DNA from: Candidatus Hodarchaeota archaeon
GTDB lineage: Archaea > Asgardarchaeota > Heimdallarchaeia > Hodarchaeales > Hodarchaeaceae
Direction of reading: 5' to 3'
Assembly: GCA_016839785.1 (NCBI GenBank)
Contig: JAEOTQ010000007.1
Span: 1 to 16,985, forward strand
DNA: 16,985 bases
Shown here: positions 1 through 16,126 of the stretch, in pieces
Position numbering within the stretch: the first letter of the stretch is position 1
How the letters are laid out: every line of letters begins with the position of its first letter
Notes under the pieces: model-generated
Databases searched by the model: none
Told to the model about the DNA's origin: nothing
What the model saw: the letters and a program-made list of their open reading frames with translations, nothing else
Translations under genes and position numbers: made by a program

Positions 1-1
1 C

Positions 2-781
2 TCAAAATCTGAATATATAGGGACCTTACTCATTCCTACTCGTGATATAAACCTCCTCTACAAATACTTCAAGCAGTGGGAGGATAATAACAATTTAAAA
101 CTTCAAGAATTTGAAATAATAGAGCAATTAAGACGTAGTACCGCTTTTTCTTTATACAAACCTAATATTGGATGGCGAGACATACCTGCGAAGGAACGAC
201 AGACTATTCTGCGTCATATATCATTGGATGAAGTGGAAGAAACCCTAGAAAATAATTTACTCTTTATCAACAAGCCACTGATCCCACTAAACTGGTCTTT
301 CACTGATCATCCCCAACCAGAAGAGATCATCAGATTATTTTGTAAAATCCCCGACCAATTTTCCTTTTCTAGACTTCCATTTGATAATATAATCCAAGAA
401 AAGGATAAGCACATATCATTAGGAGAAATAGAGCAATTAAAATATTTGTACAACAAAAAAGTATTGGAGGTAGGATTTACTCCTTGGAGGTTGATATACA
501 ATTATTCCGTAAACCGTTACTGTATAAGAATACCCAAGATCACCTTCAAAAAGATTATTCATTTCTTGAAAATCCTACCGTATGCAGAAATCTACTTTTC
601 CAGACACCAGATATATTTTTGGACACGATTGCGTAATAAGGAAGTAGAATGGATAAGAAATCGTTTTAGGTGGACTATTTTTCCAGTGGTACGAGCTCAT
701 CCTATCCCTGATCTTGATTTTGACTGGTTTGAGAAGGACTGCCTTCAGTGGACTCGTTCAAAAGTTTTACAAGATACATAG
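2..781 (+). CDS. Uncharacterised large protein, 5'-truncated by the window edge; paralogue of 11386..12909
   Basis: The frame is open from nt 2 (SKSEYIGTLLIPTRDINLL...YKPNIGWRDI...), so the 224 start in the ORF track is internal. It aligns collinearly with the C-terminal half of 11386..12909 (EYIGTLLIPT/EFVGTFLVPT, GFTPWRLI/GFVPWRLI, FLKILPYA/FLEILPYA, DWF...WT). Confidence 0.85.
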   Translation, partial: SKSEYIGTLLIPTRDINLLYKYFKQWEDNNNLKLQEFEIIEQLRRSTAFSLYKPNIGWRDIPAKERQTILRHISLDEVEETLENNLLFINKPLIPLNWSFTDHPQPEEIIRLFCKIPDQFSFSRLPFDNIIQEKDKHISLGEIEQLKYLYNKKVLEVGFTPWRLIYNYSVNRYCIRIPKITFKKIIHFLKILPYAEIYFSRHQIYFWTRLRNKEVEWIRNRFRWTIFPVVRAHPIPDLDFDWFEKDCLQWTRSKVLQDT

Positions 782-797
782 ATGCAGTCGAGTACTG

Positions 798-823
798 AAA
801 AAAAAGAAAATAAAAAAAAGGGG
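798..823 (-). terminator. Oligo(T) terminator for the small peptide gene 872..910
   Basis: Minus strand reads CCCC-T8-A-T4-C-T8. The same CCCC-T7 element occurs at 12916..12926 downstream of the second peptide ORF. Confidence 0.55.
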
Positions 824-871
824 ATGGAAGGACGTTAGAATGTCAATAAATAACAAAAAGTTTATTTCCAT

Positions 872-910
872 TTATTTTCCACTATCAGGACCATCTCTTG
901 GGGGCATCAT
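872..910 (-). CDS. 12-aa micropeptide MMPPRDGPDSGK
   Basis: ATG ATG CCC CCA AGA GAT GGT CCT GAT AGT GGA AAA TAA, with GAGGT (923..919) 8 nt upstream. A homologous ORF of identical length lies at 12970..13008 in the same gene context. Confidence 0.7.
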   Translation of the reverse strand: MMPPRDGPDSGK

Positions 911-918
911 TCGATTCA

Positions 919-969
919 ACCTCAATCAATATCTTTGAAGTCGCTTTTTAGTCTCATGAAAATTAGGTA
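919..969 (-). promoter_or_regulatory. RBS, TATA-like box and upstream conserved motif for micropeptide 1
   Basis: GAGGT at 923..919, CTAAAAAG at 951..944, and plus-strand AAAATTAGGTA at 959..969. All match copy 2 in sequence and spacing. Confidence 0.5.
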
Positions 970-1139
970 GCAACAGGCCCTCTAATAGGATTCAGAAACA
1001 ATTTCATGATCATTTTTGTCAGACAAAGCACTTATTCACGCATTCACTGACCTCTCTCTTACAAACTTAGTAAATGAGAGGATAGAACTTTTGTATTGTT
1101 TAGCAATCATAATTCCTGAAATAAGACCAGGTGTATTAT

Positions 1140-1592
1140 TCAAGACTTGTTTACGGAATAAAGCATCTGATAGTGGGTATCAGTTTCATTCGTTGTGGCA
1201 AAACCAAGGGATCGATAAAGCTGAAAAGCTCTTTGATTGACCTTGAGCACTTGTAATTCAATATTCTTACCTTCCTGTTCTCCTTGCTTAATAAGATCTC
1301 TAATTAATCTGCTACCAACTCCTTGATTTTGAAAAGCAGGAAGGATTTCGATCACACTTAGAAATAGCTTGTCGGGGTGAATCTCAACCGCAAAACAACC
1401 AATATCCTCACCAGATGCTTGAATTATTGTATAGACCTCAGGATTAACGCTATGTCGATGACGGTCATACTGGAAATCTTCATCCCAGCCCCAGATTTGC
1501 GCTACATATTCTTTCAGCGTTTGTGTTTTTAGATAAAATAGAAACTCTAAATCCTCCTGTTTTCCATCCCGGAAGCTAATCTTCACTGCCAT
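1140..1592 (-). CDS. GNAT family N-acetyltransferase
   Basis: 150 aa with acetyl-CoA motif A (ILPAFQNQGVGSRLI) and motif B (LQVLKVNQRAFQLYRSLGF). Confidence 0.92.
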   Translation of the reverse strand: MAVKISFRDGKQEDLEFLFYLKTQTLKEYVAQIWGWDEDFQYDRHRHSVNPEVYTIIQASGEDIGCFAVEIHPDKLFLSVIEILPAFQNQGVGSRLIRDLIKQGEQEGKNIELQVLKVNQRAFQLYRSLGFATTNETDTHYQMLYSVNKS

Positions 1593-1739
1593 AGGAATTA
1601 AGCTTCACTTCCCTGTTTAGAGTTTGTGCAACTCTACTAGCACAAAACCAGATAGATCGCTTAACAATTTATGAAATAACCAAAATTGAACATTGCTGAA
1701 AATATTTAGAAAATTGTATCCGTTTTTAAATTCGAGTTA

Positions 1740-1776
1740 GAAAAAGAGAAGAAAATAACGACTTAGAGTCGTTATT
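1740..1776 (-). terminator. Stem-loop plus T-rich tract terminator of the 758-aa surface protein gene
   Basis: Perfect 10-bp inverted repeat AATAACGACT-tag-AGTCGTTATT (1754..1776) directly after the stop codon, followed on the minus strand by TTCTTCTCTTTTT. Confidence 0.7.
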
Positions 1777-1778
1777 CC

Positions 1779-4055
1779 TTATTGCCGTCGTTTCTTCAGA
1801 CCGAATGAGGCTACTACCAAAATTACAATTGGTACTATGAAAGAGAACCCAGGAACTCCACCTTCACTTTCATCAGTGGTCGATTCTTCATGCGATCCAG
1901 TTCCTTCGTAAGAGGCTGTAAAGACTGGATCGTGAACAATTCCTTCTCCATTCCATGTTGGGTAACTTGTTATTACCAAGTTCTCACGGAAAAGCCAAGA
2001 AATATCTTGAGTATGAGTATCGGCTGACCATTGCGTAAGTCCAGCGGCTATCCGTCTGGATATTGGAGAAGAATATGGGTTTCGAGCTGTCTGGTTTGTA
2101 GGCTCTCCTGAAAATCCTTCGGCGGTAAGAAGATTCATCACCGATGTACCTGAACTATAAGTCGTACTGGGGTCATTAACCAGATAATACTGTTCCTTGG
2201 TACCTCCAAAATTCTGAGAAAAGAGATCTTGTCCTGCTACAGTCAGATCAAATTGTGACTCTGGGCGTGCGAATGATCCAGAAGCATCTTGGGATATCTG
2301 AGTTATACTAAGATAATAATCCCTACGATAAGCAGCCATGCTCAGTTCTTGAGAACTCATCATTTCTTTTAATTGGGGATTCTGAACTCCCGACTGCTGA
2401 TACGTACTTTCTAAGGTTGAAAGTCCAGCCTCAGGGGCAATAGTTAAAGAGTATCCATAGGTAATATCAGTAAGATCATGACTCACTCGTTCCAAGGATG
2501 AGTTTCTAGCCCACCAGGTTATTGGCATATCATCATAAGTGGTTTCCCACGAAAAAATAGCTTTGCCATTCTCTTTGACTGGTGCATTCCAATTAAGACT
2601 CACACTCTTAGGGCCAGCTTCAGGTCGACGAGGGTCATAACCCCAAGTTTCTTCGAACGGCCGATCAATAGAACGTACAATATCAGTTTCATTATCAGCA
2701 ATTATCCAATCACCGAGGGAAGTATAGACACGTGCGTTTGCAACCCCATTTCCGTAATAAGAACCTTCAATATGAGCTCCTTCAGGAATTCCAACCGCCA
2801 TAATGGCGTCTGGGGTAGCAATATAGGATTCATTGAGATAAGCAGTTAATATCTCGTCTCCATTGACATCTCGATATCCGATCACCCGTCCAGGATTGAA
2901 ATTTCCCCACACAGCAAGATTGGGAGATGTTTCGGTTGAAGCTTTCGTTAGGAGAACTTGGATCATGCTTTGAATTGCACCTTCACCATAAAGAACTCCT
3001 GATTCCTCTTCATAAAAGTCCCAGAAACCAGCTAAAACTAACCGCAATGACTGAAGATGAATAGGTCTGATAGATTCTGGAACCACACTACCATTGCTTG
3101 AAAACGTTACCTCGCGAGTAACATTGGTTGACAATGAACCATCTAAAGTAAAGCCTGCAGTGTAATCGTATTCCACATTCCCAGAAATTAATGCAAAATA
3201 ATCATACCAATAATTCCTTCCATCTTTTATCGAAACATGTTGCCCATGTAAGTTCTCGGTCCATGAACCAGAGAAATTAAATTGACCAGAGAGAGAAGCG
3301 GCTACAGTACTGGTTTCAGTAACTTCAACTGACATTTGGGTTGTTTTTACTCTGATAAATACAAATTTTGGAATAAGAATTTCCTGAAAGACGACTTCAT
3401 CATCATTAAAATCGAGGGAAGTCCCATTATCAAAGACGTATGCAATATGGTACATCTGAAGGGTCGAATAATCATATGCAGTACCAAACCAGTCTTGCAT
3501 TGGGACATCAACAGTCCCCACTTCGGTTAAAATGGCATAAGATGTTAACCATGTCGGGCTTATCCATTTTTCTGCAAGACCGATATCAATTTGACGACCA
3601 AACCAGGATATATTCAAGGACTGAGAGAATGTGTTCCAATTTAATTCCGTAATTCCATGATAACGATACCATGCACCACCAACATCTGTTCCGTTGGTTA
3701 AATATCCATCAGCACGATATCCTCGCCAATTCTGAGGCGTACCCGGTCGTTCCCAGGTTGAGCTTGGCATACTTTTTGAACGATTAGTCCACCGCTGCCA
3801 AAAAACATCTATCACCTCTAATCCAGTTCGGATTGGAGCTTGGATCGTGAATTCTCGTGTCTTAGTATTTGATTCAGATTCAGAAAAAGACTGAGAATAT
3901 GCGACCGTTTTTGTGAAATTCCTCGTTTGCTCTCCATATTCAAAATCAAATCCATAGAAGGAACCAGAGGTCTGAGACGCGACAGGAGCTAAGGACTGAG
4001 AGAAAAAAGTGAGCGAAAGGAGGAATGTTATCAATATGAAGTATTTTCGATTCAT
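1779..4055 (-). CDS. Secreted cell-surface glycoprotein with PGF-CTERM-like sorting signal
   Basis: Signal peptide (MNRKYFILITFLLSLTFFSQSLA), many N-x-S/T sequons, beta-rich body, acidic S/T linker, then VPGF + hydrophobic helix + KKRRQ. Confidence 0.85.
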   Translation of the reverse strand: MNRKYFILITFLLSLTFFSQSLAPVASQTSGSFYGFDFEYGEQTRNFTKTVAYSQSFSESESNTKTREFTIQAPIRTGLEVIDVFWQRWTNRSKSMPSSTWERPGTPQNWRGYRADGYLTNGTDVGGAWYRYHGITELNWNTFSQSLNISWFGRQIDIGLAEKWISPTWLTSYAILTEVGTVDVPMQDWFGTAYDYSTLQMYHIAYVFDNGTSLDFNDDEVVFQEILIPKFVFIRVKTTQMSVEVTETSTVAASLSGQFNFSGSWTENLHGQHVSIKDGRNYWYDYFALISGNVEYDYTAGFTLDGSLSTNVTREVTFSSNGSVVPESIRPIHLQSLRLVLAGFWDFYEEESGVLYGEGAIQSMIQVLLTKASTETSPNLAVWGNFNPGRVIGYRDVNGDEILTAYLNESYIATPDAIMAVGIPEGAHIEGSYYGNGVANARVYTSLGDWIIADNETDIVRSIDRPFEETWGYDPRRPEAGPKSVSLNWNAPVKENGKAIFSWETTYDDMPITWWARNSSLERVSHDLTDITYGYSLTIAPEAGLSTLESTYQQSGVQNPQLKEMMSSQELSMAAYRRDYYLSITQISQDASGSFARPESQFDLTVAGQDLFSQNFGGTKEQYYLVNDPSTTYSSGTSVMNLLTAEGFSGEPTNQTARNPYSSPISRRIAAGLTQWSADTHTQDISWLFRENLVITSYPTWNGEGIVHDPVFTASYEGTGSHEESTTDESEGGVPGFSFIVPIVILVVASFGLKKRRQ

Positions 4056-4250
4056 ATCACATCATTCCAGGTTAATTTTTAACTTTTGAGAGAATCCATG
4101 ATCTCTAATCCTTTTCAAGATCAGAGAAAATTATGGATCTAGATGAGTAATTAACGTTTAAGGTTTATAAGATGAATCAAAAGGGATGCTAATGTATTGA
4201 TGTGTTAATTTCTTCATCAATCGATTTTTCTTCCCTCACTTTCTGGAATA

Positions 4251-5336
4251 CTAATCTCTTTGGAATTTATAACTTATTCCAAGGCCAGATGCACTTGGGA
4301 TTTGGAGGGCTCCTTGTTTTTGGTAAAGTCCCGAAGTCGGATCATCCTGTAATGCTCCAAGGCCAATACCTTGAGGATGTTTAAAATTGGGGGATGATAA
4401 AGCAATATGGAGAGCAGCTGCTACTCCAATTTGTGTTTCCCAAGGACTAATTAAGACACATTCAATGTCATTACACTCAGCTAGAGTTGCAATCTTGGTG
4501 GTTTTAAATATCCCACCATGTTTAATAAGTTTTAGACCAAAAAGATCTGCAGCACGACTTTGAATGAGTTTAACGGCATCAACTATTGTACAAATACTCT
4601 CATCAACCATAATTGGGATATCAACTGATTTTCTGAGAAAATTTAGTCCGTCGTAATCCCATGCTGCAATGGGTTGCTCCACATACTCGATATCCCAACG
4701 TTCAATCTTCTTGAGGACTTTTACTGCAGTATTTAAGGAATAGCCCTCATTGGCATCAATTCTAATATTAAAATCGTCACCCACAATATCTCTAACAGTT
4801 TTTACCGTTTCTATATCCTTTTGAATGTCAACTCCCACTTTGAGCTTGACAGCTTTAATACCAAACTTGAGGAACTGTTCTGCTTTTTGTGCTAAAACTA
4901 AAGGCTCTCCCATACCGAGAGCTTCACAAGTATCTACTTTTGTACGACAGAGACCACCAAGAAGTTTGTATACAGGAACATCTAACGTCTTACCGACTAA
5001 ATCATAGAGAGCCATGTCTATAGCTGCTTTGGCAGAATTGTTCGCGGGAAATTGACGATCTAATTCCTGATGTAAGGCCTCTAGATTGAATGGATCTTTA
5101 TTAAGTAGAATATGAGCATAATACTTGTCTATCATCAACTTTATTGTATCAGAAGTTTCTCCAGAAAAATCTGGAAGAGGACAGCTTTCCCCAATCCCTG
5201 AAAACCCATCATTACTCGTGATTCTAACTATCACATGAGTCTTAATCGAGGGTTCGGTTCCATATGTTGTAATGAAATTTTCATCCGTTAGTTTCGTGGC
5301 TAGATATTCTGTTTCAATTTCTACTATTTTTGACAC
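4251..5336 (-). CDS. Enolase-superfamily enzyme, muconate-lactonizing/dipeptide epimerase subgroup
   Basis: KLKVG (KxK), metal ligands in DANEG, EQP and DES, second Lys in LKLIKHGG, and AAIDMALYDL in the capping domain. Strong RBS AGGAGG before the GTG start. Confidence 0.9.
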   Translation of the reverse strand: MSKIVEIETEYLATKLTDENFITTYGTEPSIKTHVIVRITSNDGFSGIGESCPLPDFSGETSDTIKLMIDKYYAHILLNKDPFNLEALHQELDRQFPANNSAKAAIDMALYDLVGKTLDVPVYKLLGGLCRTKVDTCEALGMGEPLVLAQKAEQFLKFGIKAVKLKVGVDIQKDIETVKTVRDIVGDDFNIRIDANEGYSLNTAVKVLKKIERWDIEYVEQPIAAWDYDGLNFLRKSVDIPIMVDESICTIVDAVKLIQSRAADLFGLKLIKHGGIFKTTKIATLAECNDIECVLISPWETQIGVAAALHIALSSPNFKHPQGIGLGALQDDPTSGLYQKQGALQIPSASGLGISYKFQRD

Positions 5337-5407
5337 ATATTTATCCTCCTATTGGTGAATTCCGCAAAACTAAGTAAAAGGAGAGTTTCCACTAAGAATT
5401 CGTTATC

Positions 5408-6496
5408 TCACTGTTGGCGTTGTTCAATGATAATTTGATCAGGTGCAGCTTGATTTCTAACCTCTTGAATTTGCTCATCAAATCGAATAGCTCTCTGGCT
5501 TCTAAGTCGGGTTTTTTTGCCTTTGAAAAGATCAATTTGCCTTTTTGTTGCATAAAAATGTACAGGCTGTTGGTTATATTGAATAGTTATACCTTGCCAT
5601 TTATCATGGGAGAGTTGGTACAATTTTCCACTACCCGTGGTAGGTTTTTCCTCAAGTTCTATTTTAGAAAACTCATTAGTCAAAATTTCACCAATTTTGC
5701 TTTCAGGATGACTTGAAATCTTAACATCCTTTAAGAATACATGATCCGAAAGAAATCCTTTGAGAACTGATTCACTAAACTGAGTCCAAAGTGAATTGGT
5801 TCCATAAAACTCTAATCCTAAAATTTTATCGCCGTAAAAACAGATGATTCCAGTCTGATCAGAAAGATTCAGACTTGTGGAGAAGTGTTGAAATAAGTCT
5901 TGAAAATGATGGTCTTTCTCGTAGGCAGCTTCTTGGAATTCACGATACGAACTGGAGGGTGATTCAGCTGCTCCATATCCAAGAGAACTAGCATAATATC
6001 CTACACTATTCCAGAGAACTGATTGATCTCCATCTTCCGAAGAGATGTTTGCCATTTGAGGAGCCATTCGTGTAACACCAGAACTAAATCTTTTCGAGGT
6101 AGCGACTCCACGAGAACTTCGATAGGTCCATCTACTTTGTTCGATGCAGCGTGCAGGAATTATAAGAGGATTGCGTTCATCATGACCAGTAGGGACAATA
6201 ATAGGTTCGAAAATAGTTCTATCCTGTTTTCCTCCTACAACCTGATGGAGATAAGGGATTAAAACAGGATACGGACTTTTATTGATTGCTTCTAGATGTG
6301 CTACACTTTCTGCCCCTTCCGATTCTTGAATCCAGGCTAAATCCTTGGCTTCTCCCTCAACTAACCCTAAGATTGAGAGATTAGAGTCTGATTTAACGAT
6401 AGGATAAACTGTAAAATTCTCATGAGTAATAGCGTCCCCAAAAGTATAAAAATTACCTAGATTTTGAATGATTTCTGTAATACTCAATAAATTCAA
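5408..6496 (-). CDS. ARPP-1 / DUF6569-like domain protein
   Basis: Motifs V..LEAINKS..PVLI, GGKQDR, CIEQSRW and QSVLWNSV resemble the family pattern GGKQ(N/D)R...CVExxRW. Recognised from memory, not by HMM search. Confidence 0.65.
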   Translation of the reverse strand: MNLLSITEIIQNLGNFYTFGDAITHENFTVYPIVKSDSNLSILGLVEGEAKDLAWIQESEGAESVAHLEAINKSPYPVLIPYLHQVVGGKQDRTIFEPIIVPTGHDERNPLIIPARCIEQSRWTYRSSRGVATSKRFSSGVTRMAPQMANISSEDGDQSVLWNSVGYYASSLGYGAAESPSSSYREFQEAAYEKDHHFQDLFQHFSTSLNLSDQTGIICFYGDKILGLEFYGTNSLWTQFSESVLKGFLSDHVFLKDVKISSHPESKIGEILTNEFSKIELEEKPTTGSGKLYQLSHDKWQGITIQYNQQPVHFYATKRQIDLFKGKKTRLRSQRAIRFDEQIQEVRNQAAPDQIIIEQRQQ

Positions 6497-6844
6497 CTCG
6501 TTTGATCAATTAAGTCATTAAAGTTCTTCTAATTTTATTTAATGATTAATGTCAAGTATTTTACTGATCCCTATCTTGTAAGATCAAGTCTCCTACTCAA
6601 CCTAGATGTGAATGATTTCCTCACTTATAAGAATTTAAGTAATGGACTGCGATTCTCAACAAGGTAAGAGGCATCAGGTAAGAATTATTTGAAAATATTG
6701 AATTCCGCAATAATATATCTATTAAAAGTGAGAATCCCCATTAAAACAAAGATATGGAAAGTGAACACATTAATAGAGAAAATTATCATTTAGACATTAG
6801 AAAGCCTGTATTTACCTAAAAATTCTTTAGAAGGTTATAACAGA

Positions 6845-7363
6845 GTGGTACAAATAGTTATACCTGATATACTGAACTCAAGAAATATTTGTGCCATTTG
6901 TAGAAGAGAAGTGCATGAAGAGGGGAATTTGATTATCTGTCCTTTCTGTATCTCAGCATATCATCGGAAGCATCTCGCAGAGTGGGTGGAAAGAAAAAAT
7001 TCGTGTCCAGTGTGCAAGAAAGGGCTCAAGGAATATAATCTCGGGATACCTCTCGAGAAGATAAGGCCTAAACCAACACAGAGATCACCATATAGGAAAT
7101 CCCATATTATTTCTCAAGAGAACAGACACAACTATGCTAGATCGGATATTACTAGTCGATCACGGCAAAATAGTAATTTTCACAGGATAAACAGTGAGAA
7201 TCATGACCACACAAAAGAATTAAAACTGATAGCTGCTTTGGTCATATTTTGGTTAATGATATTTAGTACAAATGTCACTCTTGCCCTGGTGGGTTCTATA
7301 GTAATTGTTCCTCTAATATTTTACTTTTTCAATAGATGGTATAATTCTTATCATCTATTGTGA
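6845..7363 (+). CDS. RING-finger protein with C-terminal transmembrane hairpin (putative E3 ligase)
   Basis: CAIC-x12-CPFC-x3-YHRKHLAEW-x6-CPVC zinc-ligand pattern, a basic disordered linker, and two hydrophobic segments (LIAALVIFWLMIF; LALVGSIVIVPLIFYFF). Confidence 0.8.
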   Translation: MVQIVIPDILNSRNICAICRREVHEEGNLIICPFCISAYHRKHLAEWVERKNSCPVCKKGLKEYNLGIPLEKIRPKPTQRSPYRKSHIISQENRHNYARSDITSRSRQNSNFHRINSENHDHTKELKLIAALVIFWLMIFSTNVTLALVGSIVIVPLIFYFFNRWYNSYHLL

Positions 7364-7454
7364 GTCACGAAGAGACCCAAATTAGAGTTAATTCTTGCCT
7401 CAAGAGATAAGTATTAAAAAAAAGGTTGAGAGGTATTCTCAGTAATCCAGCTGA

Positions 7455-8636
7455 ATGAGTGCAGAAGTGAGAGAAGTGGTAAAATTTCCTTTTGGTTTTT
7501 TTCTTATCATATACTTAGTTACAATAAATGGCTATGTGATACACGGCACTAATATGAAAACAACTCAAGGTGACGAGTGGTACTTTACAGAACTAGCAAG
7601 GTTGAGCACAGGAGGGGATGCTTATACGATCAAAGTCGAAAATGACTATTGTTACATTAGTTGTGGGTACAGTGGATTTAGAATCTTCGATATTAGCAAT
7701 CTTTCAGCTCCATACCAAGTAGCACACATTCCTCAAACAACCAACGGATATGCTCATCAATTCATCCTCCACGAAAACATTGCGTTTATAGGGAATGGTT
7801 ATGGAGGGATCTGGATAATAAACTGTACCAATCCAGAGGAACCAAACATAATTACAGAGTATGAGCATGATTATTCCTGGGATGTACAGCTGAAGGAAGA
7901 CATGATGTATGCTGGAAATGGGCACATCCAACCCCAGGAGAGTGTTACAGTCACTAACGTGAGTGATATAACTAAGCCAATTCATATGAAGACTATCTTA
8001 ACAGATGATGATATTACTGATTTGCAACGAATAGATCATAGATTATATGCAGCCAGTTCAACAGATGGATTGTTAATATTTGATATTACGAGTAGTACAG
8101 ACCCCATATATTTAGGTAAATATGTAGACGCTCAGCATCCTGACATCTACTTAGTGAGCTTTGATGTTGTAGAAGAGTATGCATTTGTAGTGTATTATCA
8201 ATACGGAATGCAAATTTTGAATATTAGTGATGCCACAAATATCACTCTTGTCACAGAATTAGTGAATGAAAACACAGATTACTATTCTATCCATGTGAGG
8301 AACGATATAGCTTACATATCGGATATAAACAATGGAATACTCTTAATTAATGTGAGTAGCAGCACCGATCCAGAAGAGATCGTCCAATATACCTATGAGA
8401 ATTGTGGGACGAATGATATTTTTGAACAAGGTGAAATTTTATTTATAGCAGATAGAAATATTGGATTATTGATTTTCAATACGACAAAGGGATTGAAAAC
8501 GTCAACAACAACAGTAATAAAGACTAACGATTCTTCTGAAATAACCACAACCACCACGACGACAACCCCTCTTTCTGAAATCTTGATCTTTCTCCTCTTT
8601 GGACTATGGTGGCTATATATTAAACGAAAGCGCTAA
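7455..8636 (+). CDS. LVIVD-repeat (beta-propeller) surface protein with Thr-rich linker and C-terminal anchor
   Basis: About 42-aa repeats such as YCYISCGYSGFRIFDISNLSAP, LYAASSTDGLLIFDITSSTDP and AYISDINNGILLINVSSSTDP. N-terminal hydrophobic stretch; ends TTTTTTTP + TM + KRKR. Confidence 0.88.
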   Translation: MSAEVREVVKFPFGFFLIIYLVTINGYVIHGTNMKTTQGDEWYFTELARLSTGGDAYTIKVENDYCYISCGYSGFRIFDISNLSAPYQVAHIPQTTNGYAHQFILHENIAFIGNGYGGIWIINCTNPEEPNIITEYEHDYSWDVQLKEDMMYAGNGHIQPQESVTVTNVSDITKPIHMKTILTDDDITDLQRIDHRLYAASSTDGLLIFDITSSTDPIYLGKYVDAQHPDIYLVSFDVVEEYAFVVYYQYGMQILNISDATNITLVTELVNENTDYYSIHVRNDIAYISDINNGILLINVSSSTDPEEIVQYTYENCGTNDIFEQGEILFIADRNIGLLIFNTTKGLKTSTTTVIKTNDSSEITTTTTTTTPLSEILIFLLFGLWWLYIKRKR

Positions 8637-8741
8637 AATACTTTCTAAATCAAGTACTCCCTTTATGATGTCTTCGGAATCCACTAAAATTTTCCCTGAT
8701 ACAACTTCCTCCAAAAAAAAGAAATAATTGGAAATATCCAA

Positions 8742-9419
8742 CTATTTCTCTATACTGGAGTTATTTTTCACCTTCCTTTGTTTTAATCCAAATAGAATTA
8801 AAATGCCCATATTCAAAGGGATTAGAAAACCTGGAAATCCTTTGGCTTTTGTGGTGGTTGTAGTAGTTAGAAAAGTAGAGGTTATCCCAAACTCTTCAAG
8901 AAATTCTACATCGGGTCGAAATTCATTAAGAATAGGCTGAAAATCAACATAATCCTGATCGAAGGAGCCTATATCCACAAACTTCGCCAGACTAATAATT
9001 TGTAGATCAGGATCATCCATTTCTGAATTTTCGATGAATATCATAGATAATTGATGTTGATCAACTTGAAAATGTTCATTTTCACTTCCCATTTGCCATA
9101 TACCAGACGCGGAAAATGGATCACCCAGCATCCAGAAGAGATAATTATTACCCTCATTTGTACGGAAGAATAACATGGAACCAACATAATTAGTGGTAGC
9201 ATCTAAGGGAATTGAAAATAATATGAAAACTACTAACGACTTTGTTTCTCCTCTGGCGGGTGCTACAAAAAGATCGAAATCAAGGGTGACTAGAAGTTGA
9301 GAACTACTCTTTGTCACCTCCAATATTGCTACATCAGAAGCACACGATCCTGAAGAAGTATAGAGATTAAACGAAACAAAAAGAAGGAGAAATAACATTG
9401 ATACGTGTTTTTGCTTCAT
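8742..9419 (-). CDS. Secreted surface protein with Thr linker and PGF-type C-terminal anchor
   Basis: Signal peptide (MKQKHVSMLFLLLFVSF), acidic body, TTTTTT-KAKGFPGF + hydrophobic helix + KQRKVK. Starts 11 nt after the Hcp stop. Confidence 0.75.
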   Translation of the reverse strand: MKQKHVSMLFLLLFVSFNLYTSSGSCASDVAILEVTKSSSQLLVTLDFDLFVAPARGETKSLVVFILFSIPLDATTNYVGSMLFFRTNEGNNYLFWMLGDPFSASGIWQMGSENEHFQVDQHQLSMIFIENSEMDDPDLQIISLAKFVDIGSFDQDYVDFQPILNEFRPDVEFLEEFGITSTFLTTTTTTKAKGFPGFLIPLNMGILILFGLKQRKVKNNSSIEK

Positions 9420-9430
9420 ACTACTTCACG

Positions 9431-10036
9431 TTAACCAGGTGGGTTGATCCAGTCGTCTTCAGCTTCTATATTTCCCTTAGCGTTTCCCTCGGAATCATAT
9501 TCGGTATAAGTCCATTTAATTGTTTCATAGGTGAAAGAAACGGTTTCTCTGGGGATTTCGTCAATACTAATGGTTCCATATCCTTGAACGGAAGTGATCT
9601 TCGCATTAGTGAGCTCAATAGTGTAAAAATTTAATCCACTAGGTTCAAAATAAAATCGTAAAATGACAGAGGGGGCAGTAGTCCCTTTGACACATTTCTC
9701 ATATAGTTTTGGAGTCGATTTATCAATAGATTTCATAATTCGAAGGGGTGAATGCTGTTTGCCAGTAAGGTCTCCTGTAAGTCGGTCATACGGATTACTT
9801 ATACTATGGGAATAACCAAGTACCGTTATTGATTTTTCCCGACCAGCAATGATTGATTCACCATCAACACCCTCATAAAATAGATTCATTGAGATTGAAT
9901 TGAAGCTCGGATATTGAGTTTCAAGTGTAGAGGCATTCACATGTTGACCAAAACTAATAATCAACATAGAGAGAGTGGTTATTCCAATAAGTACCCCTAA
10001 AAGAACAACCAAACGTGTATTATATCTAATCTTCAT
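9431..10036 (-). CDS. hcp: Hcp (type VI secretion tube-like) family protein with N-terminal signal/TM segment
   Basis: Typical Hcp motifs: VDGES...REKSITVLGYSH, HSPLRIMKSIDKSTPKLY, YTIELTNAKITSV, ETVSFTYETIKWTY. Start is ATG 10036 or GTG 10045. The first ~35 aa are basic then hydrophobic. Confidence 0.9.
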   Translation of the reverse strand: MKIRYNTRLVVLLGVLIGITTLSMLIISFGQHVNASTLETQYPSFNSISMNLFYEGVDGESIIAGREKSITVLGYSHSISNPYDRLTGDLTGKQHSPLRIMKSIDKSTPKLYEKCVKGTTAPSVILRFYFEPSGLNFYTIELTNAKITSVQGYGTISIDEIPRETVSFTYETIKWTYTEYDSEGNAKGNIEAEDDWINPPG

Positions 10037-10199
10037 TTTTATCACTTCTGAATTTTAATAATTTATTCTTGTGAACGGGTCCCAGCAGTGCACATTGGGA
10101 TTCTTATGCTTATCGTTTAGTTGCGATATCCGTTTGTCATGAGGTTCGGGAAAAATCCTTTAATAGGACTTTAGATTATGTTTAGAAGAGGGGAATATA

Positions 10200-11222
10200 A
10201 TGCAAAAACTTGTGTCTAGATGTGGCAATATTTGCTCTGATTGTCCTTGGTCAATGTATTACCGTCAAAGAGTTGAAAAAAAGAATTGGGAACACTTAAG
10301 TAAACAATTCAAGAAATATGTTGGATATTATCCAATAAAGTACGAATGGGAGGGGTGTGTTGGGTGTGTAACTCCAACTGAGCGACTCCCAAAACATCCT
10401 CACTATAATTTCTTAAAGTCGTGTAATACAAGAAAGTGTGTAAACTATAATGAAATAGACTCATGTGCACACTGTAGTAGATATCCCTGTGGGAATACAG
10501 TGTCTCTCCAAGGTTTAACGAGAGAAAGAATATCAACAAAATTGGATGAGGAGATCTCTGATGAGAATTACGAACAATTTATCAGAATGTTTGATTCAAA
10601 GACAAATCTGACAGATATTCGACAATCCCTCTCCAAAAATCAGTTACATGACCCAAAACCAATCGAAAAATCCACTCTAACTAGAGATATTTCTGATAGG
10701 ATCAAGGATGAAGCGCTGAAGCAATTTTACAATACATTGATGGAAATCTATGCCTCCGACCTCGGGATTCAAGATATTGATACACTAGCTGGATTCGAAA
10801 AATTGAAAATAAGGCAGGAGGTAATCTCAAGAATATTATGGCTAGTTGGAATCCAAGGAGAGAGTGATAGTGAGGGTATAATCCTTGATGGAATAACCTT
10901 ACACAAAAATAAAAAAACCGCTAAATTGCCAACGAATGAAAAAGGCTGGGAAATTTACTTAGAAACATTAACAGGATTTGGAATAAAAAGTATATTGGAT
11001 ATAAAAACAGAAGACCTCTATACGCCAGGTGGTTGGATGCGTGATAGAATTCCAAAATCGAATACACCTGCTTATTATCTGAAAATGAGTTTAGATCCCA
11101 AATTTATCAAATTTGCGTTTTTCAAGATATTAAAGAACTATATAGCCGATTTACAAGCTACTAGTGGAAGAAGAGGGTATACCAAATTTAAAAATTTAAA
11201 TACAAATTTTTTCTTCGAATAG
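10200..11222 (+). CDS. DUF3795-domain Cys-rich protein with C-terminal extension
   Basis: SRCGNICSDCP...CVGC...CNTRKC....IDSCAHCSRYPC pattern. RBS GAGGGG upstream. Confidence 0.75.
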   Translation: MQKLVSRCGNICSDCPWSMYYRQRVEKKNWEHLSKQFKKYVGYYPIKYEWEGCVGCVTPTERLPKHPHYNFLKSCNTRKCVNYNEIDSCAHCSRYPCGNTVSLQGLTRERISTKLDEEISDENYEQFIRMFDSKTNLTDIRQSLSKNQLHDPKPIEKSTLTRDISDRIKDEALKQFYNTLMEIYASDLGIQDIDTLAGFEKLKIRQEVISRILWLVGIQGESDSEGIILDGITLHKNKKTAKLPTNEKGWEIYLETLTGFGIKSILDIKTEDLYTPGGWMRDRIPKSNTPAYYLKMSLDPKFIKFAFFKILKNYIADLQATSGRRGYTKFKNLNTNFFFE

Positions 11223-11385
11223 GACATTCTACAAAGAAATTCTAGGCAAAATAGCATCTATCGGAAGGAAAAAGTAATTAGAAAGCAAAAAAAATGATCT
11301 CTCTTTATCCATCACAATTATCTTTGTGAGTAATATCCCGAAGAAGTAATAATATTCTCATAATAAAGAAGCTGAAAGGATTCCC

Positions 11386-12909
11386 GTGAAAAGACTAGAA
11401 AATATCAAAAAAAGTATCGGAACAATTCTTGATCAATTTCCCAAATTCCTCGAGCCCTATGACCACGAGGACCAACTCTTAATCAAAACATTCTTAGAAT
11501 TACTTACCTATATTGAAGAGGCAGAACATAATAGAGCCAACCTTTCCAATCGATTCGTTGAGTATCGAGAGTTATCTTTCGCTCACCAAAGGTATTTTAC
11601 AACACAATTTCTTTGGTTAACTAAAAGTATTGCAGAAGAGGCCATCTATCATTTAAGTATCTCACGTTTTTATCCTTTAGATTTTTATAATTTCGTTCTA
11701 TATCAAATTAGACAAGTTTTTCAGTTAATTCGACAGACCATACCATTGAATCATCAGCTCTTTGAGGATCAGCAGGAAAAACTAAAACCGCTATATTCTC
11801 CACTAACTCCTGATGAAGTTGAGCTTCTGAAATTATTTCAGTCTATCTTGAGGAAAGGAGGAATTGAATCACTCAATGCAAAAACAATAAGGAATGAAGT
11901 ACTCCATAATACTGCAATCCCAAGTAAAATGAAACGAGAAACAGAAATCTCGCGTTTTCAAACCTTAATTGAGGGAAAATGGTGGCTTCTATTTCAATCT
12001 CTTGCATTTGGATTAACACGTGTGTTCTTTCATCTTAACGTGGGAAAAAATCAAACACTAGACAATTTGTTTGAATTATCTAATCCAGTAAATACCACAC
12101 TAGGTCGAAGTGATGTCTATAAAATCTGGGGATCAGAGGCTGAATTTGTAGGGACTTTTCTTGTTCCTACTATAGATCTAAATCCTCTGGAGAGACTGCT
12201 TAAGCAGTATGAAAGGGAAGGAAAACTGGTTGTCAAGAAACTTGTACCGATAAGAATGAGAAAACGGACAATCTCTATTACCAATTATAAAACTAAATAC
12301 GGGTGGAAAAATCTAACAAAAAAGGGGGAACAGGCAATAGTTAGTATGATTAAGCCAGTTAAGCAAGTAAAGAACATAATATCAGATTTAGAATTATTTC
12401 TTAATCCATTAATATTGCCTAACTGGCATATCACTGAAGTAGATTCCCCCACCAGTATAGTAGAGCTCTATTGCAAAACACCTTCAGAGTATACATATCC
12501 GAATCTTCCCTATACATTTCTGCCCAAAAAAAAGAAAAATATCTTAACCCGTTCCGAAATTACAATTATGACGCAGTTATTTGAGAAGAGTGTAATTGAC
12601 ATAGGATTTGTTCCTTGGCGTTTAATTGATGAATATTCTCGAAATTTATATTGTATTGAAATTCCTCCCTTACCCTATTCGACGCTAATACCATTCCTAG
12701 AAATTTTACCCTATGCAGATAGTTATTTTTCAGAGAAAAATCATTTTCTCTTAGCGAGGTTATCACCACAAATGGTTCAATGGATTCAAAAATCATTAAA
12801 ATGGAAAACATTTTCTTTACAGCGTCTACATTTTGCAACAGAACTAAAAAGTGATTGGTTTAATTCAAAAACAATGGAATGGACTAAACCTCTAATTTTA
12901 CAGAAATAG
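11386..12909 (+). CDS. Uncharacterised 507-aa soluble protein, possibly with wHTH/Lrp-like modules; paralogue of <2..781
   Basis: Long ORF with no signal peptide or TM segment and a helical N-terminus. LTPDEVELLKL...AFGLTRVFFHL and LTRSEITIMTQL weakly recall wHTH starts. The paralogy is visible directly; the fold is speculative. Confidence 0.85.
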   Translation: MKRLENIKKSIGTILDQFPKFLEPYDHEDQLLIKTFLELLTYIEEAEHNRANLSNRFVEYRELSFAHQRYFTTQFLWLTKSIAEEAIYHLSISRFYPLDFYNFVLYQIRQVFQLIRQTIPLNHQLFEDQQEKLKPLYSPLTPDEVELLKLFQSILRKGGIESLNAKTIRNEVLHNTAIPSKMKRETEISRFQTLIEGKWWLLFQSLAFGLTRVFFHLNVGKNQTLDNLFELSNPVNTTLGRSDVYKIWGSEAEFVGTFLVPTIDLNPLERLLKQYEREGKLVVKKLVPIRMRKRTISITNYKTKYGWKNLTKKGEQAIVSMIKPVKQVKNIISDLELFLNPLILPNWHITEVDSPTSIVELYCKTPSEYTYPNLPYTFLPKKKKNILTRSEITIMTQLFEKSVIDIGFVPWRLIDEYSRNLYCIEIPPLPYSTLIPFLEILPYADSYFSEKNHFLLARLSPQMVQWIQKSLKWKTFSLQRLHFATELKSDWFNSKTMEWTKPLILQK

Positions 12910-12915
12910 GGGAAG

Positions 12916-12946
12916 AAAAAAAGGGGAAAATGGAAATAATATTTCC
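12916..12946 (-). terminator. Oligo(T) terminator for micropeptide 2 with adjacent small palindrome
   Basis: CCCC-T7 on the minus strand (12926..12916) and GGAAATA-a-TATTTCC inverted repeat (12932..12946). Confidence 0.55.
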
Positions 12947-12969
12947 TTGTAAAGAAATTTCAATTCTCC

Positions 12970-13008
12970 TTATTTACCATCGCTTCCGCGATCACTTGGG
13001 GGCATCAT
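12970..13008 (-). CDS. 12-aa micropeptide MMPPSDRGSDGK
   Basis: ATG ATG CCC CCA AGT GAT CGC GGA AGC GAT GGT AAA TAA, with GAGGT (13021..13017) 8 nt upstream. 7/12 residues are identical to 872..910. Confidence 0.7.
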   Translation of the reverse strand: MMPPSDRGSDGK

Positions 13009-13016
13009 TTCGGTTG

Positions 13017-13067
13017 ACCTCAGCATTTATTTCCTTAAAGGTCTTTTAAGCTCCCAAAAATGACGTA
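13017..13067 (-). promoter_or_regulatory. RBS, TATA-like box and upstream conserved motif for micropeptide 2
   Basis: GAGGT at 13021..13017, CTTAAAAG at 13050..13043, and plus-strand AAAATGACGTA at 13057..13067. Confidence 0.5.
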
Positions 13068-13163
13068 CTAGGGATTTTGTGAGAAATCTCTTTACAGAGA
13101 AATCCAATCATAAATCAAAAATTAATTGAAAAATTTGATTTTAACCTCCCCAAAATGTACCAC

Positions 13164-13250
13164 AAAAAAAGGAGGAAGGAAAATCTTATTACGCGAATCC
13201 CTAATCAGGAAGAATATGTTAAGATGTTATTGATGTATTGTTCCTCCTAA
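13164..13250 (-). ncRNA. Candidate small structured RNA
   Basis: Nested inverted repeats: AGGAGGAA 13170..13177 / TTCCTCCT 13241..13248 and ATCTTA 13183..13188 / TAAGAT 13220..13225. A T7 tract follows on the minus strand, with TTACATAAATA about 30 nt upstream. Confidence 0.3.
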
Positions 13251-13434
13251 TTACTGTATACATCTAGTTATGGAATATTTATGTAAGCCTTTCAGAGTTA
13301 GATTCAGGTTTAAAAGACAAAATTTCTACAGAATATCAGCATTTTTAAGAGAAAACTTCTTACAAGGAGAATCCGATTTAAATCTTCTAAACTAGGTAGC
13401 TAAAAGAATTAATTACGTTAAAATGAATCTAAAT

Positions 13435-13526
13435 GAAAAAGAGATAACTTTATAAACATTAAACGTTCAACTGCGAATTGTGAGGCAATTAATGAACTCA
13501 CGAAAATTCAAATAGAGAAAAGGTGA
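13435..13526 (+). promoter_or_regulatory. BRE/TATA promoter and RBS of the histone gene
   Basis: Purine-rich GAAAAAGAGATAAC followed by TTTATAAA (13449..13456). AGGTGA (13521..13526) lies 6 nt before the ATG. Confidence 0.6.
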
Positions 13527-13532
13527 AAAAAT

Positions 13533-13751
13533 ATGGGTAAAAAAAGAAAAGCTGGTTTTGCAAGTGCTCGTGTCGAAAAACTAATCCGAAATGCTGGAGC
13601 TTTTCGAGTATCAGCTGACGCGACTTTTCGACTGAATGAGATCTTAACTAGTTACGCAATGTCCCTGGCAAGATATGGAAATGATATTGCAAAGCACAAT
13701 GGGCGTAAAACAGTTCAAGAATCAGATATAATACTAGCTGCAACTAAATAA
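13533..13751 (+). CDS. Archaeal histone (HMf-like) with short basic N-terminal extension
   Basis: 72 aa with histone-fold signatures AGAFRVSADA and AKHNGRKTVQESDIILA (compare HMf AGAERVS..A, ARHAGRKTIKAEDIELA). Confidence 0.96.
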   Translation: MGKKRKAGFASARVEKLIRNAGAFRVSADATFRLNEILTSYAMSLARYGNDIAKHNGRKTVQESDIILAATK

Positions 13752-13782
13752 GAAGGGTTAACCTTCTTTTCATTATTTTTTT
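13751..13782 (+). terminator. Histone gene terminator
   Basis: AGAAGG-gttaa-CCTTCT hairpin followed by TTT-CATTA-T7, immediately after the stop. Confidence 0.6.
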
Positions 13783-13828
13783 AATTCTAAATAACTTAGA
13801 GTCAACAATCCTTATCATAATGTCTTTA

Positions 13829-14719: not shown

Positions 14720-14836
14720 TCCATTCCATCTCCTGCGTTTCTCATGTTCTTAGAACCTGCTCACTCAATATATATTAGCTTTTCTTCAAAACATCATTGA
14801 GATATATAAATAATTAAGAGCTGGCTAAATCCTCGT

Positions 14837-15061
14837 TTATTTTCTTTTATAGATACTAATGGCGAATAGGAGTAATAATATGAAATAAACTTGGGAAAAA
14901 GATCCTGCTTTGGTCATTTTACTCGTAGAATCAGACTCAACCGAGTTTGTAATAGAAACAGTTGTGGTTAGGGAGATGGAACAAGAAAACCTACCAGTAA
15001 TTGAGAGGCTCCCTCCTTCCTTCAAAATCAGATTAAGCGTTATAAAAGTGAAAACTGACCC
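14837..15061 (-). pseudogene. Possible C-terminal remnant of a surface-anchored protein
   Basis: Open frame with no ATG, signal peptide or clear RBS near its 5' end. It encodes an S/T-rich linker + hydrophobic helix + KRK, like the tails of three other genes here. Confidence 0.4.
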
Positions 15062-15095
15062 TTACTTATCTTCGTCGCAACATTTAATAGGAATC

Positions 15096-15713: not shown

Positions 15714-16126
15714 TTCAAATCTAACTAATCTAGGATTTCACTTGAGAAATAAAGGTTCTTCAGTTATTCTTCGCCCTGAAAAACTCGTGAAAAAAGGATT
15801 AGCCAACAGAAGATCAGAAATTTCAAAGAAAAAAAACAAATAATTGGCATTGGGAGAATTAAAATTTACGTAAAATAATAGTTTCAAAAATAATTGCTTT
15901 TCTGAATTCTCATACTCCGATCTCGAAAACAAGTAGAAATCCCAATTCTCTAGATATAACTTCTTATTCAAGAAATAGTGGTAATAATCTCAAGGCAGAA
16001 AAAATTCGTTGGAGATTTAGGAGTACCTGCTGGGAGATGTAGGAACTCTTGTAAGGGGTGAAATGCTAGAATATAGATAGTGATGAAATCAGTACATTAG
16101 AATGAAAACCCCCCCTGAGATGATGT

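Follow-up and report, generated by a model that had tools for sequence, protein, structure and literature searches.

Two convergent gene pairs in the window

The stretch of DNA analyzed here (hereafter the window) comprises 16,985 nucleotides (nt) of contig JAEOTQ010000007.1 (positions 1 to 16,985, forward strand) from assembly GCA_016839785.1 of Candidatus Hodarchaeota archaeon, a metagenome-assembled genome (MAG) of the Asgard order Hodarchaeales that totals 4.04 Mb in 248 contigs at 36% G+C and is designated G000 below. Twice in the window, an open reading frame (ORF) of 12 codons, termed the mini-gene, faces tail-to-tail the gene of a far larger protein, termed the large gene, and carries its own putative expression signals on the strand opposite to that of its partner. 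The features of the two units are as follows:

2..781, plus strand: 3' part (259 codons) of large-protein paralogue 1, matching positions 253-508 of the family hidden Markov model (HMM) at E 9e-84; no Pfam family
798..824, minus strand: predicted oligo-T terminator of mini-gene 1, a C-rich tract followed by two T8 runs
872..910, minus strand: coding sequence of mini-gene 1, 12 codons plus TAA, encoding MMPPRDGPDSGK* and reading ATGATGCCCCCAAGAGATGGTCCTGATAGTGGAAAATAA as nucleotides
919..923, minus strand: Shine-Dalgarno (SD) sequence GAGGT of mini-gene 1, 8 nt before the ATG
945..952, minus strand: TATA-like box CTAAAAAG of mini-gene 1, 37-44 nt before the ATG, a putative promoter element
11386..12909, plus strand: large-protein paralogue 2, 507 amino acids (aa), soluble and aromatic-rich, without known family
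12916..12926, minus strand: predicted terminator of mini-gene 2, CCCC plus T7
12916..13086, strand not known: match of a 176-nt metatranscriptome contig from run X14, covering mini-gene 2
12970..13008, minus strand: coding sequence of mini-gene 2, 12 codons plus TAA, encoding MMPPSDRGSDGK*
13017..13021, minus strand: SD sequence GAGGT of mini-gene 2, 8 nt before the ATG
13043..13050, minus strand: TATA-like box CTTAAAAG of mini-gene 2, a putative promoter element

The terminator-like tract of mini-gene 1 (824..798) adjoins the stop codon (779..781) of the plus-strand ORF <2..781, and this paralogue is split between two contigs, with window positions 1..127 overlapping positions 5011..5136 of G000 contig C84 through 42 identical residues. 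The two large proteins of the window are paralogues with 35% identity over 258 aa, and their mini-genes lie 60-90 nt past the large-gene stops, mini-gene 2 at 60 nt past that of 11386..12909. A 15-nt identical core, AAATGATGCCCCCAAG, is common to both mini-gene regions, the surroundings of which differ, and the codon of the penultimate Gly is GGA in mini-gene 1 and GGT in mini-gene 2. This codon difference had been recorded correctly in an earlier note on the window, as had every sequence detail it gave for mini-gene 1, namely, a 39-nt ORF with GAGGT 8 nt upstream, a TATA-like box, a poly(T) terminator, and a tail-to-tail orientation. A second conserved GAGGT block lies approximately 150 nt upstream of both mini-genes (1060..1075 and 13140..13150, both minus strand) with no comparable ORF after it; the block may be the remnant of an older copy.

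Linkage of the mini-gene to the large gene across the genus

Homologues of the large gene were collected as 78 ORF hits in 22 genomes, 73 of which include the C-terminus and 72 of these at least 120 nt of downstream sequence, and a mini-ORF was defined as an ORF of 8-16 aa that starts M-P-P or M-x-P-P and lies within 300 nt downstream of the large gene. Such a mini-ORF (9-16 aa among those found) stands on the opposite strand behind 54 of the 72 large genes and on the same strand, within the same 300 nt, behind none of them (0/72), against a chance expectation of 0.75 in the 72 intervals that is based on 281 such ORFs per 8.08 million strand-bases throughout G000. The distance from the large-gene stop to the mini-ORF ranges from 19 to 204 nt, with a median of about 65. 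The scan of the opposite strand downstream of homologues, which the earlier note had set as the test of its recurring two-gene unit, has returned mini-ORFs rather than the refuting pattern, and the claim that the peptide gene is real is upheld by its promoter-like box, SD sequence, and terminator together with its conservation at 54 of 72 loci.

Linkage is also recovered when position is ignored. A search for the pattern GAGGT-N7-9-ATGATGCCNCCN across 83 genomes of the class gave 15 matches in 8 of the 22 genomes of the genus, among them mini-gene 1 of the window (G000:C3:900-923); 14 of the 15 lie beside a large gene or its C-terminal fragment and one lies at a contig edge. The 61 genomes from outside the genus yielded two matches, a 15-aa hydrophobic ORF and a 28-aa ORF, neither of which is a mini-gene, and a control search with the reversed pattern yielded none. 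Within G000, three of the four mini-genes are beside large genes. As the commonest neighboring family occurs in just 13 of 70 large-gene neighborhoods, so that no third gene is a constant neighbor, the unit is taken to consist of two genes. The linkage persists in nearly all clades although the large proteins have diverged to approximately 22-25% identity.

The 18 large genes that lack a mini-ORF comprise one with a variant (MEIPPISPPNGRE), one from which the mini-gene has been displaced by an inversion, two with less than 160 nt of sequence, three singletons, and 11 copies in three long-stem clades that are well supported in a quick IQ-TREE phylogeny of the large protein, for which branch supports are SH-like approximate likelihood ratio test (SH-aLRT) values only.

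The peptide family and its coding constraint

Across the family, the predicted peptides follow M-(x)-P-P-x-[D/E/G]-[G/P]-[P/G]-[P/G]-[G/P]-x-[K and others], in which the second position is either left out or filled by M, S, L, N, K, C, or V, and the Pro-Pro pair is invariant among the 54 by the selection rule of the set. The pattern MMPPxDxxxxGK, put forward in the earlier note from the two window copies, describes the window's own clade and is too narrow for the family at large, where M-(x)-P-P followed by a Gly/Pro/Asp-rich tail of 7-8 residues holds. This tail length is seen in 47 of the 54 mini-proteins, total length is 9-13 aa in 53 of them, and the tail is composed of 27% Gly, 21% Pro, and 9% Asp (57% Gly+Pro+Asp); with aliphatic plus aromatic residues amounting to less than 10%, the mini-proteins are hydrophilic. 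No position in the 54 mini-proteins holds a conserved Cys, Ser, or Thr. Orthologous peptides are alike (e.g., MPPKDPGGIN, MPPKDPPGIN, and MPPKDPSGME, as well as MMPPKDGGTGNN, which is identical in two species), and paralogous peptides within one genome are all different, with 52 distinct sequences among the 54.

Several features of the nucleotide sequence are those of a reading frame. Over the 54 loci, the first Pro codon is CCC in 37, CCT in 11, CCA in five, and CCG in one, the second is CCA in 27, CCT in 21, CCC in five, and CCG in one, and the stop codon is TAA in 35, TGA in 11, and TAG in eight. The G+C content of the mini-ORF is 55%, compared to 34% and 30% in its flanks, and within the tail it amounts to 71/62/18% at codon positions 1/2/3 in a genome of 36% G+C, a periodicity that indicates a coding region in an AT-rich genome. 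Fourteen pairs of sister sequences were examined, one of which was left out because its peptides are of unequal length; in the remaining 13, which are not fully independent, the pooled proportions of synonymous (pS) and nonsynonymous (pN) differences are 0.384 and 0.150, respectively, a pN/pS ratio of 0.39, and 41 of 93 changes are synonymous compared to an expected 23.6% (binomial p = 1.1e-5). The near-orthologue of mini-gene 1 on contig C70 of genome G014, MMPPRDGPDSGL, has a replacement of the last codon and two synonymous substitutions, one of them in the second Pro codon and the other in Ser. Protein-level constraint with a variable core, as the earlier note had surmised, is thus evident from the wobble variation, the conserved N-terminus, and the pN/pS ratio, and the alternative it had raised, conservation of nucleotides over frame, is the opposite of what was found, as frame, start, and stop are kept while nucleotides vary. 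It is highly probable that the mini-ORF represents a real micro-gene that is translated and is coupled to the large gene.

Expression signals and RNA

An SD-like word is located at -18..-4 in 41 of the 54 mini-genes; the count is 265 among 1861 long ORFs and 42 among as many control windows. TATA-like words cluster at -45..-31 upstream of the 54. Between the mini-gene stop and the large-gene stop, 50 of the 54 loci contain a T6+ run, which begins a median of 38.5 nt after the former and finishes a median of 19 nt before the latter. As expression signals go, these are exceptionally good. The mini-ORF is presumably translated in vivo.

Mini-gene 2 is present in an RNA library, in that the contig from metatranscriptome run X14 covers it completely and ends at 12916, the last base of its T7 run. 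The sole other piece of the window in this run (13512..13737) lies within a histone gene, and this companion suggests abundant RNA rather than DNA carry-over; the X14 contig is taken as a hint of mini-gene 2 expression. Contig ends do not equate to transcript ends (the histone contig begins approximately 30 nt after the start predicted from the TATA box), the X14 data consist of contigs only, and the uncovered parts of the window are uninformative. The histone gene itself (13533..13751, plus strand) encodes 72 aa with a basic N-terminal tail, MGKKRKAG..., and matches PF00808 at E 5.7e-13; GGTGA, its SD sequence, precedes the ATG by 6 nt, and a TTTATAAA box is situated about 80 nt upstream.

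Noncoding candidates for the mini-gene site were also considered. No Rfam family matched there even at E up to 10, and folding gave z-scores of +0.22 and +0.86 for the peptide strand, against -0.79 and -1.34 for the opposite one; a structured RNA was rejected, given folding no better than that of shuffled sequences and the lack of an Rfam match. A C/D-box small RNA (sRNA) or tRNA-derived att site, for which AUGAUG and CUGA in copy 1 had been considered, was rejected as well, given that CUGA is missing in copy 2, that ARAGORN detected no tRNA, and that Rfam was blank at the site.

The large protein family

No match to the large protein was found in Pfam, NCBIfam, or PADLOC, and the profile search against Protein Data Bank (PDB) sequences, conducted with the whole protein and with two segments, gave nothing significant; the two segments in 29 members likewise matched nothing in Pfam. 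The best PDB-profile matches are LuxR-type helix-turn-helix (HTH) domains at a non-significant E of 0.6-1.1, and neither an HTH, a tetratricopeptide repeat (TPR), nor another peptide-binding domain reached significance in Pfam, NCBIfam, or the PDB profiles. In a feature search of the protein Atlas with a homologue, the nearest clusters are archaeal hypothetical proteins, some members of which carry HTH_24, AsnC, or TrmB; these winged-helix clusters serve only as a lead since their scores (0.78-0.88) fall under the 0.9 line. Neither a membrane segment nor a signal peptide was found in the large protein. An internal duplication, considered on account of two 'LTxxE..L' motifs, was rejected after hhalign compared the N-terminal and C-terminal halves at a probability of 0.2%.

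A profile search of 1.84 billion representatives returned only 188 relatives, all with the same architecture of about 510 aa or fragments of it, and the sole near-identical database protein is annotated 'hypothetical protein [Candidatus Hodarchaeales archaeon]'. By genome searches, the large protein is found in all 21 other genomes of its genus and in none of the 19 searched genomes from other genera of the order or class, and the family is restricted to one Hodarchaeales genus. A genome holds up to ten copies, often several per contig in the same orientation. A defense system or mobile element was rejected, as PADLOC gave no match (PHROGs was not searched) and the neighbors are ordinary cellular genes that differ between loci.

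Clades without a mini-gene, orphans, fragments, and an inversion

In two of the three clades that lack the mini-gene, all members (9/9) are co-directional with a gene for a Ras-family small GTPase located either 95 nt upstream or approximately 400 nt downstream, examples in G000 being C24 14821..15336 and C96 4468..5016 (PF00071, E 4e-44 for one). At two other loci (G020:C266 and G021:C5), a Ras-like gene lies directly upstream of the mini-gene on the mini-gene strand.

An orphan mini-gene, MSPPQDHPPGF, is found on G000 contig C145 (7610..7645, plus strand; loci L071/L073), where it has the same layout of TATA-like box, SD sequence, and terminator, converges on a TFB-like gene, and diverges from the gene of a 511-aa EF1A-family GTPase. 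The peptide M[S/N]PPQDHPPGF occurs in five of 18 assessable genomes (G000, G002, G004, G014, and G019; further loci L074, L075, L076, and L093), and MxPPQDHPPGF shows four to five synonymous changes and one replacement between species, a pattern that points to sequence-specific purifying selection. The orphan-bearing genomes are exactly the five with the mini-less large-gene clade B, including G019, which had been predicted beforehand; as the five form one lineage, the match counts as one event.

Intact extra mini-genes, MMPPQDGGNGGH and MMPPANGGNSVK, are located beside C-terminal large-gene fragments at loci L011 (G017:C90, 2132..2480) and L050 (G005:C314, 8176..8526), which suggests that the duplicating unit is the large-gene 3' end plus the mini-gene. 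On G000 contig C63 (locus L072, 174..1921), the large gene has the reverse orientation to that at the orthologous locus L044 of genome G013 while the flanks and the mini-gene are in place, such that the two genes are left in tandem with the mini-gene on the other side of the large gene. At the two ends of the inverted segment stand the arms of an 18-nt inverted repeat (174-191 / 1904-1921, 94% complementary), within which a TTTAAA box is found; the inversion may be real or an artifact of assembly. The same contig also abuts 23S-rRNA-like sequence.

Other genes of the window

Three genes are situated between the two units (6845..7363, plus strand; 5408..6496, minus strand; and 1779..4055, minus strand). 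They code for a RING-finger protein (zf-RING_2/Prok-RING_1), a protein with an ARPP-1 domain, and a protein of 758 aa without a Pfam family. The 204-aa product of 9431..10045 (minus strand) matches the Hcp domain of type VI secretion (PF05638, E 1.7e-29), and the adjacent 225-aa ORF (8742..9419) belongs to no family.

Comparison with known systems

Peptide-receptor pairs of the RRNPP type combine propeptides of 20-50 aa, which bear export and cleavage signals, with receptors of the TPR type. Like the mini-gene unit, pairs such as Rgg/SHP and Rap/Phr feature a peptide gene next to an intracellular partner, several paralogous pairs per genome, and joint divergence (from the available parts of PMC10075063 and PMC3679016, along with general background). 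The adjacency typical of RRNPP systems is present, with the peptide gene 19-204 nt from the large-gene stop at 54 of 72 loci and always convergent. On the other hand, the unit differs from these systems in that neither the propeptide signals nor the TPR receptor was found: the large protein shows no N-terminal HTH followed by C-terminal TPR-like repeats, the mini-proteins of 9-16 aa are hydrophilic and contain neither export or cleavage signals nor the hydrophobic character of leaderless signals, and no conserved transporter is present in 70 large-gene neighborhoods. Membership in the RRNPP/SHP-Rgg group, one of the possibilities raised in the earlier note, is thus not borne out, given a large protein without detectable HTH or TPR and a hydrophilic peptide with no signal or pro-sequence.

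A closer likeness, as far as the consulted sections of PMC10518010 describe it, is the leaderless communication peptide (LCP)/RopB system of Firmicutes, which likewise involves an ultrasmall ORF (24 bp, with peptides of mostly 8-10 aa) whose peptide is active unprocessed and which is encoded beside its cognate cytoplasmic partner, with many variant 'codes' and convergent neighbors being common. Going by the same sections (PMC10518010), LCPs are highly hydrophobic, rich in aliphatic and aromatic residues, whereas the Hodarchaeales mini-proteins are hydrophilic and rich in Pro, Gly, and Asp; the LCP gene is divergent from ropB, whereas the mini-gene is convergent with the large gene, tail-to-tail; and RopB is a receptor with an Rgg-clan HTH and a repeat domain, whereas the large protein matches no family. 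LCP/RopB is furthermore bacterial and the mini-gene pair Asgard archaeal.

The mini-proteins also lack the features of a ribosomally synthesized and post-translationally modified peptide (RiPP) precursor, as they have no leader or follower and no conserved modifiable residue, with only M(x)PP being invariant, and no known class of RiPP-modifying enzyme was recognized in the large protein (no family match) or among conserved neighbors in the 70 neighborhoods. The pairing of a RiPP precursor with a maturase, also proposed in the earlier note, consequently fails on the lack of leader/core length, of a conserved Cys, Ser, or Thr, of a known maturase domain, and of a conserved third gene.

Leader-peptide attenuators and ribosome arrest peptides lie upstream of their target and are co-transcribed with it; the mini-ORF lies downstream on the opposite strand and has its own TATA-like box and T-run. 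As to the stalling motif of such systems, the Pro-Pro pair is invariant by selection of the set and the tail is rich in a/eIF5A-dependent residues. Small ORFs that depend on proline or on eIF5A/EF-P include, in eukaryotes, the polyamine-sensing AMD1 'MAGDIS' upstream ORF (uORF) and the PPW element of AZIN1 and, in bacteria, leader ORFs rich in proline. The mini-ORF resembles such regulatory ORFs in being very short and in that a putatively hard-to-translate motif would be decisive, and its composition matches the a/eIF5A-dependent set (PP, GG, PG, GP, D-P/G, and termination); they differ in being upstream and on the same strand as their target, whereas the mini-ORF is directed toward the 3' end of its neighbor and is equipped with a promoter-like box and a terminator of its own.

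Two further systems are comparable in size or layout. The mccA gene, encoding the microcin C precursor, has seven codons and, like the mini-gene, is among the smallest known genes and has a dedicated SD sequence, and its peptide is, as proposed for the mini-protein, the substrate or partner of a neighboring large protein; it differs in belonging to a co-directional operon with genes for an adenylating enzyme, an exporter, and immunity and in always ending in Asn, none of which is seen at the mini-gene. Type I toxin-antitoxin systems (e.g., bsrG/SR4 and txpA/RatA) pair hydrophobic membrane toxins of 25-60 aa with an sRNA, and their small ORF and convergent transcript end within or across each other, as is probable at the mini-gene unit, although the mini-protein is hydrophilic and its partner is the gene of a 510-aa protein. 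By analogy, the working of the mini-gene unit would seem closest to that of leaderless peptide/receptor pairs or of regulatory mini-ORFs that depend on proline, although it belongs to neither group. No description of the mini-gene family was found in the open-access papers and bioRxiv preprints searched.

Proposed function and alternative explanations

The mini-protein is tentatively viewed as acting in trans inside the cell, without processing, as a ligand or modulator of its large protein. The mini-gene is a genuine gene, in all likelihood with its own transcription and translation, the hydrophilic and presumably unprocessed product of which, with 10-12 residues, consists of Met, an optional residue, Pro-Pro, and a tail of 7-8 residues that are mostly Gly, Pro, or Asp and often end in Lys. 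It is the constant genetic partner of a soluble protein of about 510 residues, each paralogue of which usually keeps its own tail-to-tail copy. The conserved N-terminal MxPP may act as a common anchor on the cognate large protein, the paralogue-specific Pro/Gly tail, probably polyproline-II-like, may give specificity, and the large protein is possibly a regulator of the winged-helix type. As the predicted terminators lie a few tens of nt apart in the convergent layout, the transcripts probably abut or overlap, which would couple expression. What has been shown of the mini-gene is that it exists, is conserved, is constrained as a coding sequence, is linked to the large gene, and is represented in an RNA library; its translation in vivo, peptide binding, and any effect on regulation are inferred. 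The proposal would account for a linkage that has outlasted large-protein divergence, for a common anchor combined with a paralogue-specific tail, and for the lack of a third partner, and it appears to be favored by sequence-specific purifying selection even on residues other than Pro, Gly, and Asp. The LCP/RopB system (PMC10518010) serves as its working analogue in bacteria.

Several points weigh against a ligand role. The large protein is without a recognizable peptide-binding or DNA-binding domain, with the Atlas and PDB hints being below significance; linkage by itself would lead peptide and protein to diverge together; and a purely trans-acting ligand leaves the strict convergent layout unexplained. 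Support from RNA consists of one low-depth contig of unknown strand, the run X14 having been picked for containing words of this region, and the chance that a 171-nt piece of a 2-kb query covers the ORF is approximately 7% by the author's arithmetic. Of the 45 columns with a conservation of 85% or more among mini-bearing copies, 36-39 are retained in the mini-less clades, and all of the conserved Trp, Tyr, Arg, and Glu residues are among them apart from W473 (replaced by Cys in clade C) and W199 (Thr in one of the four members of clade A); hence there is no obvious decay of a 'binding site' upon mini-gene loss, although this also means that the decay test does not discriminate between the readings. 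Finally, the persistence of the orphan and of mini-genes beside decayed fragments implies that a neighboring large gene is not required in cis.

The main alternative, although rather unlikely, is that the mini-ORF is a cis-acting sensor of translation. A Met-(x)-Pro-Pro start that continues with Gly, Pro, and Asp would represent a run of the poorest peptidyl-transfer substrates, translated slowly, with transit and release dependent on aIF5A (and thus on hypusine/polyamine status) or on the supply of Pro-tRNA; a ribosome parked at codons 3-4 would cover the SD sequence and start codon and couple or uncouple RNA polymerase, and the large gene would be tuned by the balance between termination at the oligo-T run and antisense transcription that enters its convergent partner from the 3' side. 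In keeping with such a sensor, the only invariant feature of the mini-ORF is Pro-Pro (codons 2-3 or 3-4), Gly, Pro, and Asp together make up 57% of the tail, and this composition matches the eIF5A-dependent pauses of yeast, which, in the part of PMC5499558 consulted, are PP, GG, PG, GP, D followed by P or G, and termination. The layout is convergent at 54 of 54 loci with the terminator adjoining the partner's stop, convergence recurs independently at the orphan, on a TFB-like gene, in five genomes, and a strong SD sequence with promoter-like elements suits a highly translated ORF; moreover, in E. coli, EF-P reportedly keeps transcription coupled to translation (PMC5021804, seen in extract). 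Against the sensor, the mini-ORF is downstream of and opposite to its target and no such attenuator geometry was found in the literature searched, and the G000 contig C63 pair is in tandem. Stalling of archaeal ribosomes on such a sequence would be an analogy from yeast. Residues other than Pro, Gly, and Asp (Q, H, and F in the orphan; K, I, and N in others) are under purifying selection with synonymous change saturated, and the tail length is fixed at 7-8, both of which imply that the product matters.

An independent small protein, with a role of its own as a ligand of another proline-recognizing module or as a ribosome- or enzyme-binding peptide, could have been co-duplicated with the large-gene 3' end, an explanation that we consider unlikely. 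It is consistent with the conservation of the orphan in five genomes without a neighboring large gene, with partial tandem duplicates in which an intact mini-gene stands beside a large-gene fragment, and with the polyproline binding reported for Heimdallarchaeal profilin (PMC8410842, in the portion accessed). Hitch-hiking, however, fails to explain a linkage kept at approximately 22-25% large-protein identity in nearly all clades, no mini-genes besides the one orphan lineage were found away from large genes, and the five genomes with the orphan are those with clade B, itself without a mini-gene, and amount to one lineage and one event. A secreted or modified peptide, either RiPP-like or a quorum-sensing signal with the large protein as maturase or receptor, is very unlikely. 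Each genome contains many adjacent pairs with different peptides, a multiplicity resembling that of Rap-Phr or Rgg-SHP (PMC3679016, in part, and general background), and leaderless signals of 8-10 aa are known (PMC10518010, same sections); yet 10-12 residues are too short for a leader plus core, the mini-proteins have no conserved Cys, Ser, or Thr and are hydrophilic, unlike SHP or LCP as characterized in those sections (PMC10518010), no conserved transporter, protease, or known maturase domain was found nearby or in the large protein, and the large protein is without a signal peptide or membrane segment. Least probable by far is a conserved DNA or RNA motif that is not a gene (candidates being an element of a bidirectional terminator or promoter, an sRNA, and a binding site for a protein). 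The 15-nt core shared by the window copies and the X14 contig, which indicates an abundant small RNA and not translation, would agree with it, but wobble positions vary over the 54 loci while frame, start, Pro-Pro, and stop are kept, three-base periodicity accompanies a pN/pS of 0.39, SD spacing is fixed, no Rfam family matches, and folding is not above that of shuffles; the noncoding explanation is largely refuted.

Beyond the ligand role favored above, a private 'peptide code' may be imagined, in which each protein of about 510 aa is switched by its own unprocessed polyproline-II mini-protein of 10-12 residues and mini-proteins and small GTPases are interchangeable inputs to one signaling scaffold, a Ras-family GTPase gene occupying the operon instead of the mini-gene in all nine members of the two clades described above. 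The aIF5A-dependent composition could additionally tie output to polyamine/hypusine status. Such a code is distinctly improbable; if true, it would represent an archaeal forerunner of proline-motif-based signaling in archaea proposed to be closest to eukaryotes.

Significance

Genes of 10-12 codons are ignored by gene callers and protein databases. With more than 50 independent-looking loci, periodicity, purifying selection, and signals of its own, the mini-gene has comparative evidence on par with what supports ordinary genes, and it would rank among the smallest conserved protein-coding genes in archaea. It is a real and hitherto unrecognized micro-gene family, of which the two window copies are typical members, both components of the unit being without known relatives. 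The Hodarchaeales have been proposed as the sister group of eukaryotes (PMC12395588, in the text available). If the respective explanation is true, a paralogue-specific intracellular proline-rich peptide ligand, or an aIF5A-dependent stalling mini-ORF tail-to-tail with its target, would be the first for archaea according to the open-access literature searched. The mini-gene also provides a first functional handle on the large protein, an orphan family with multiple copies that is specific to the genus.

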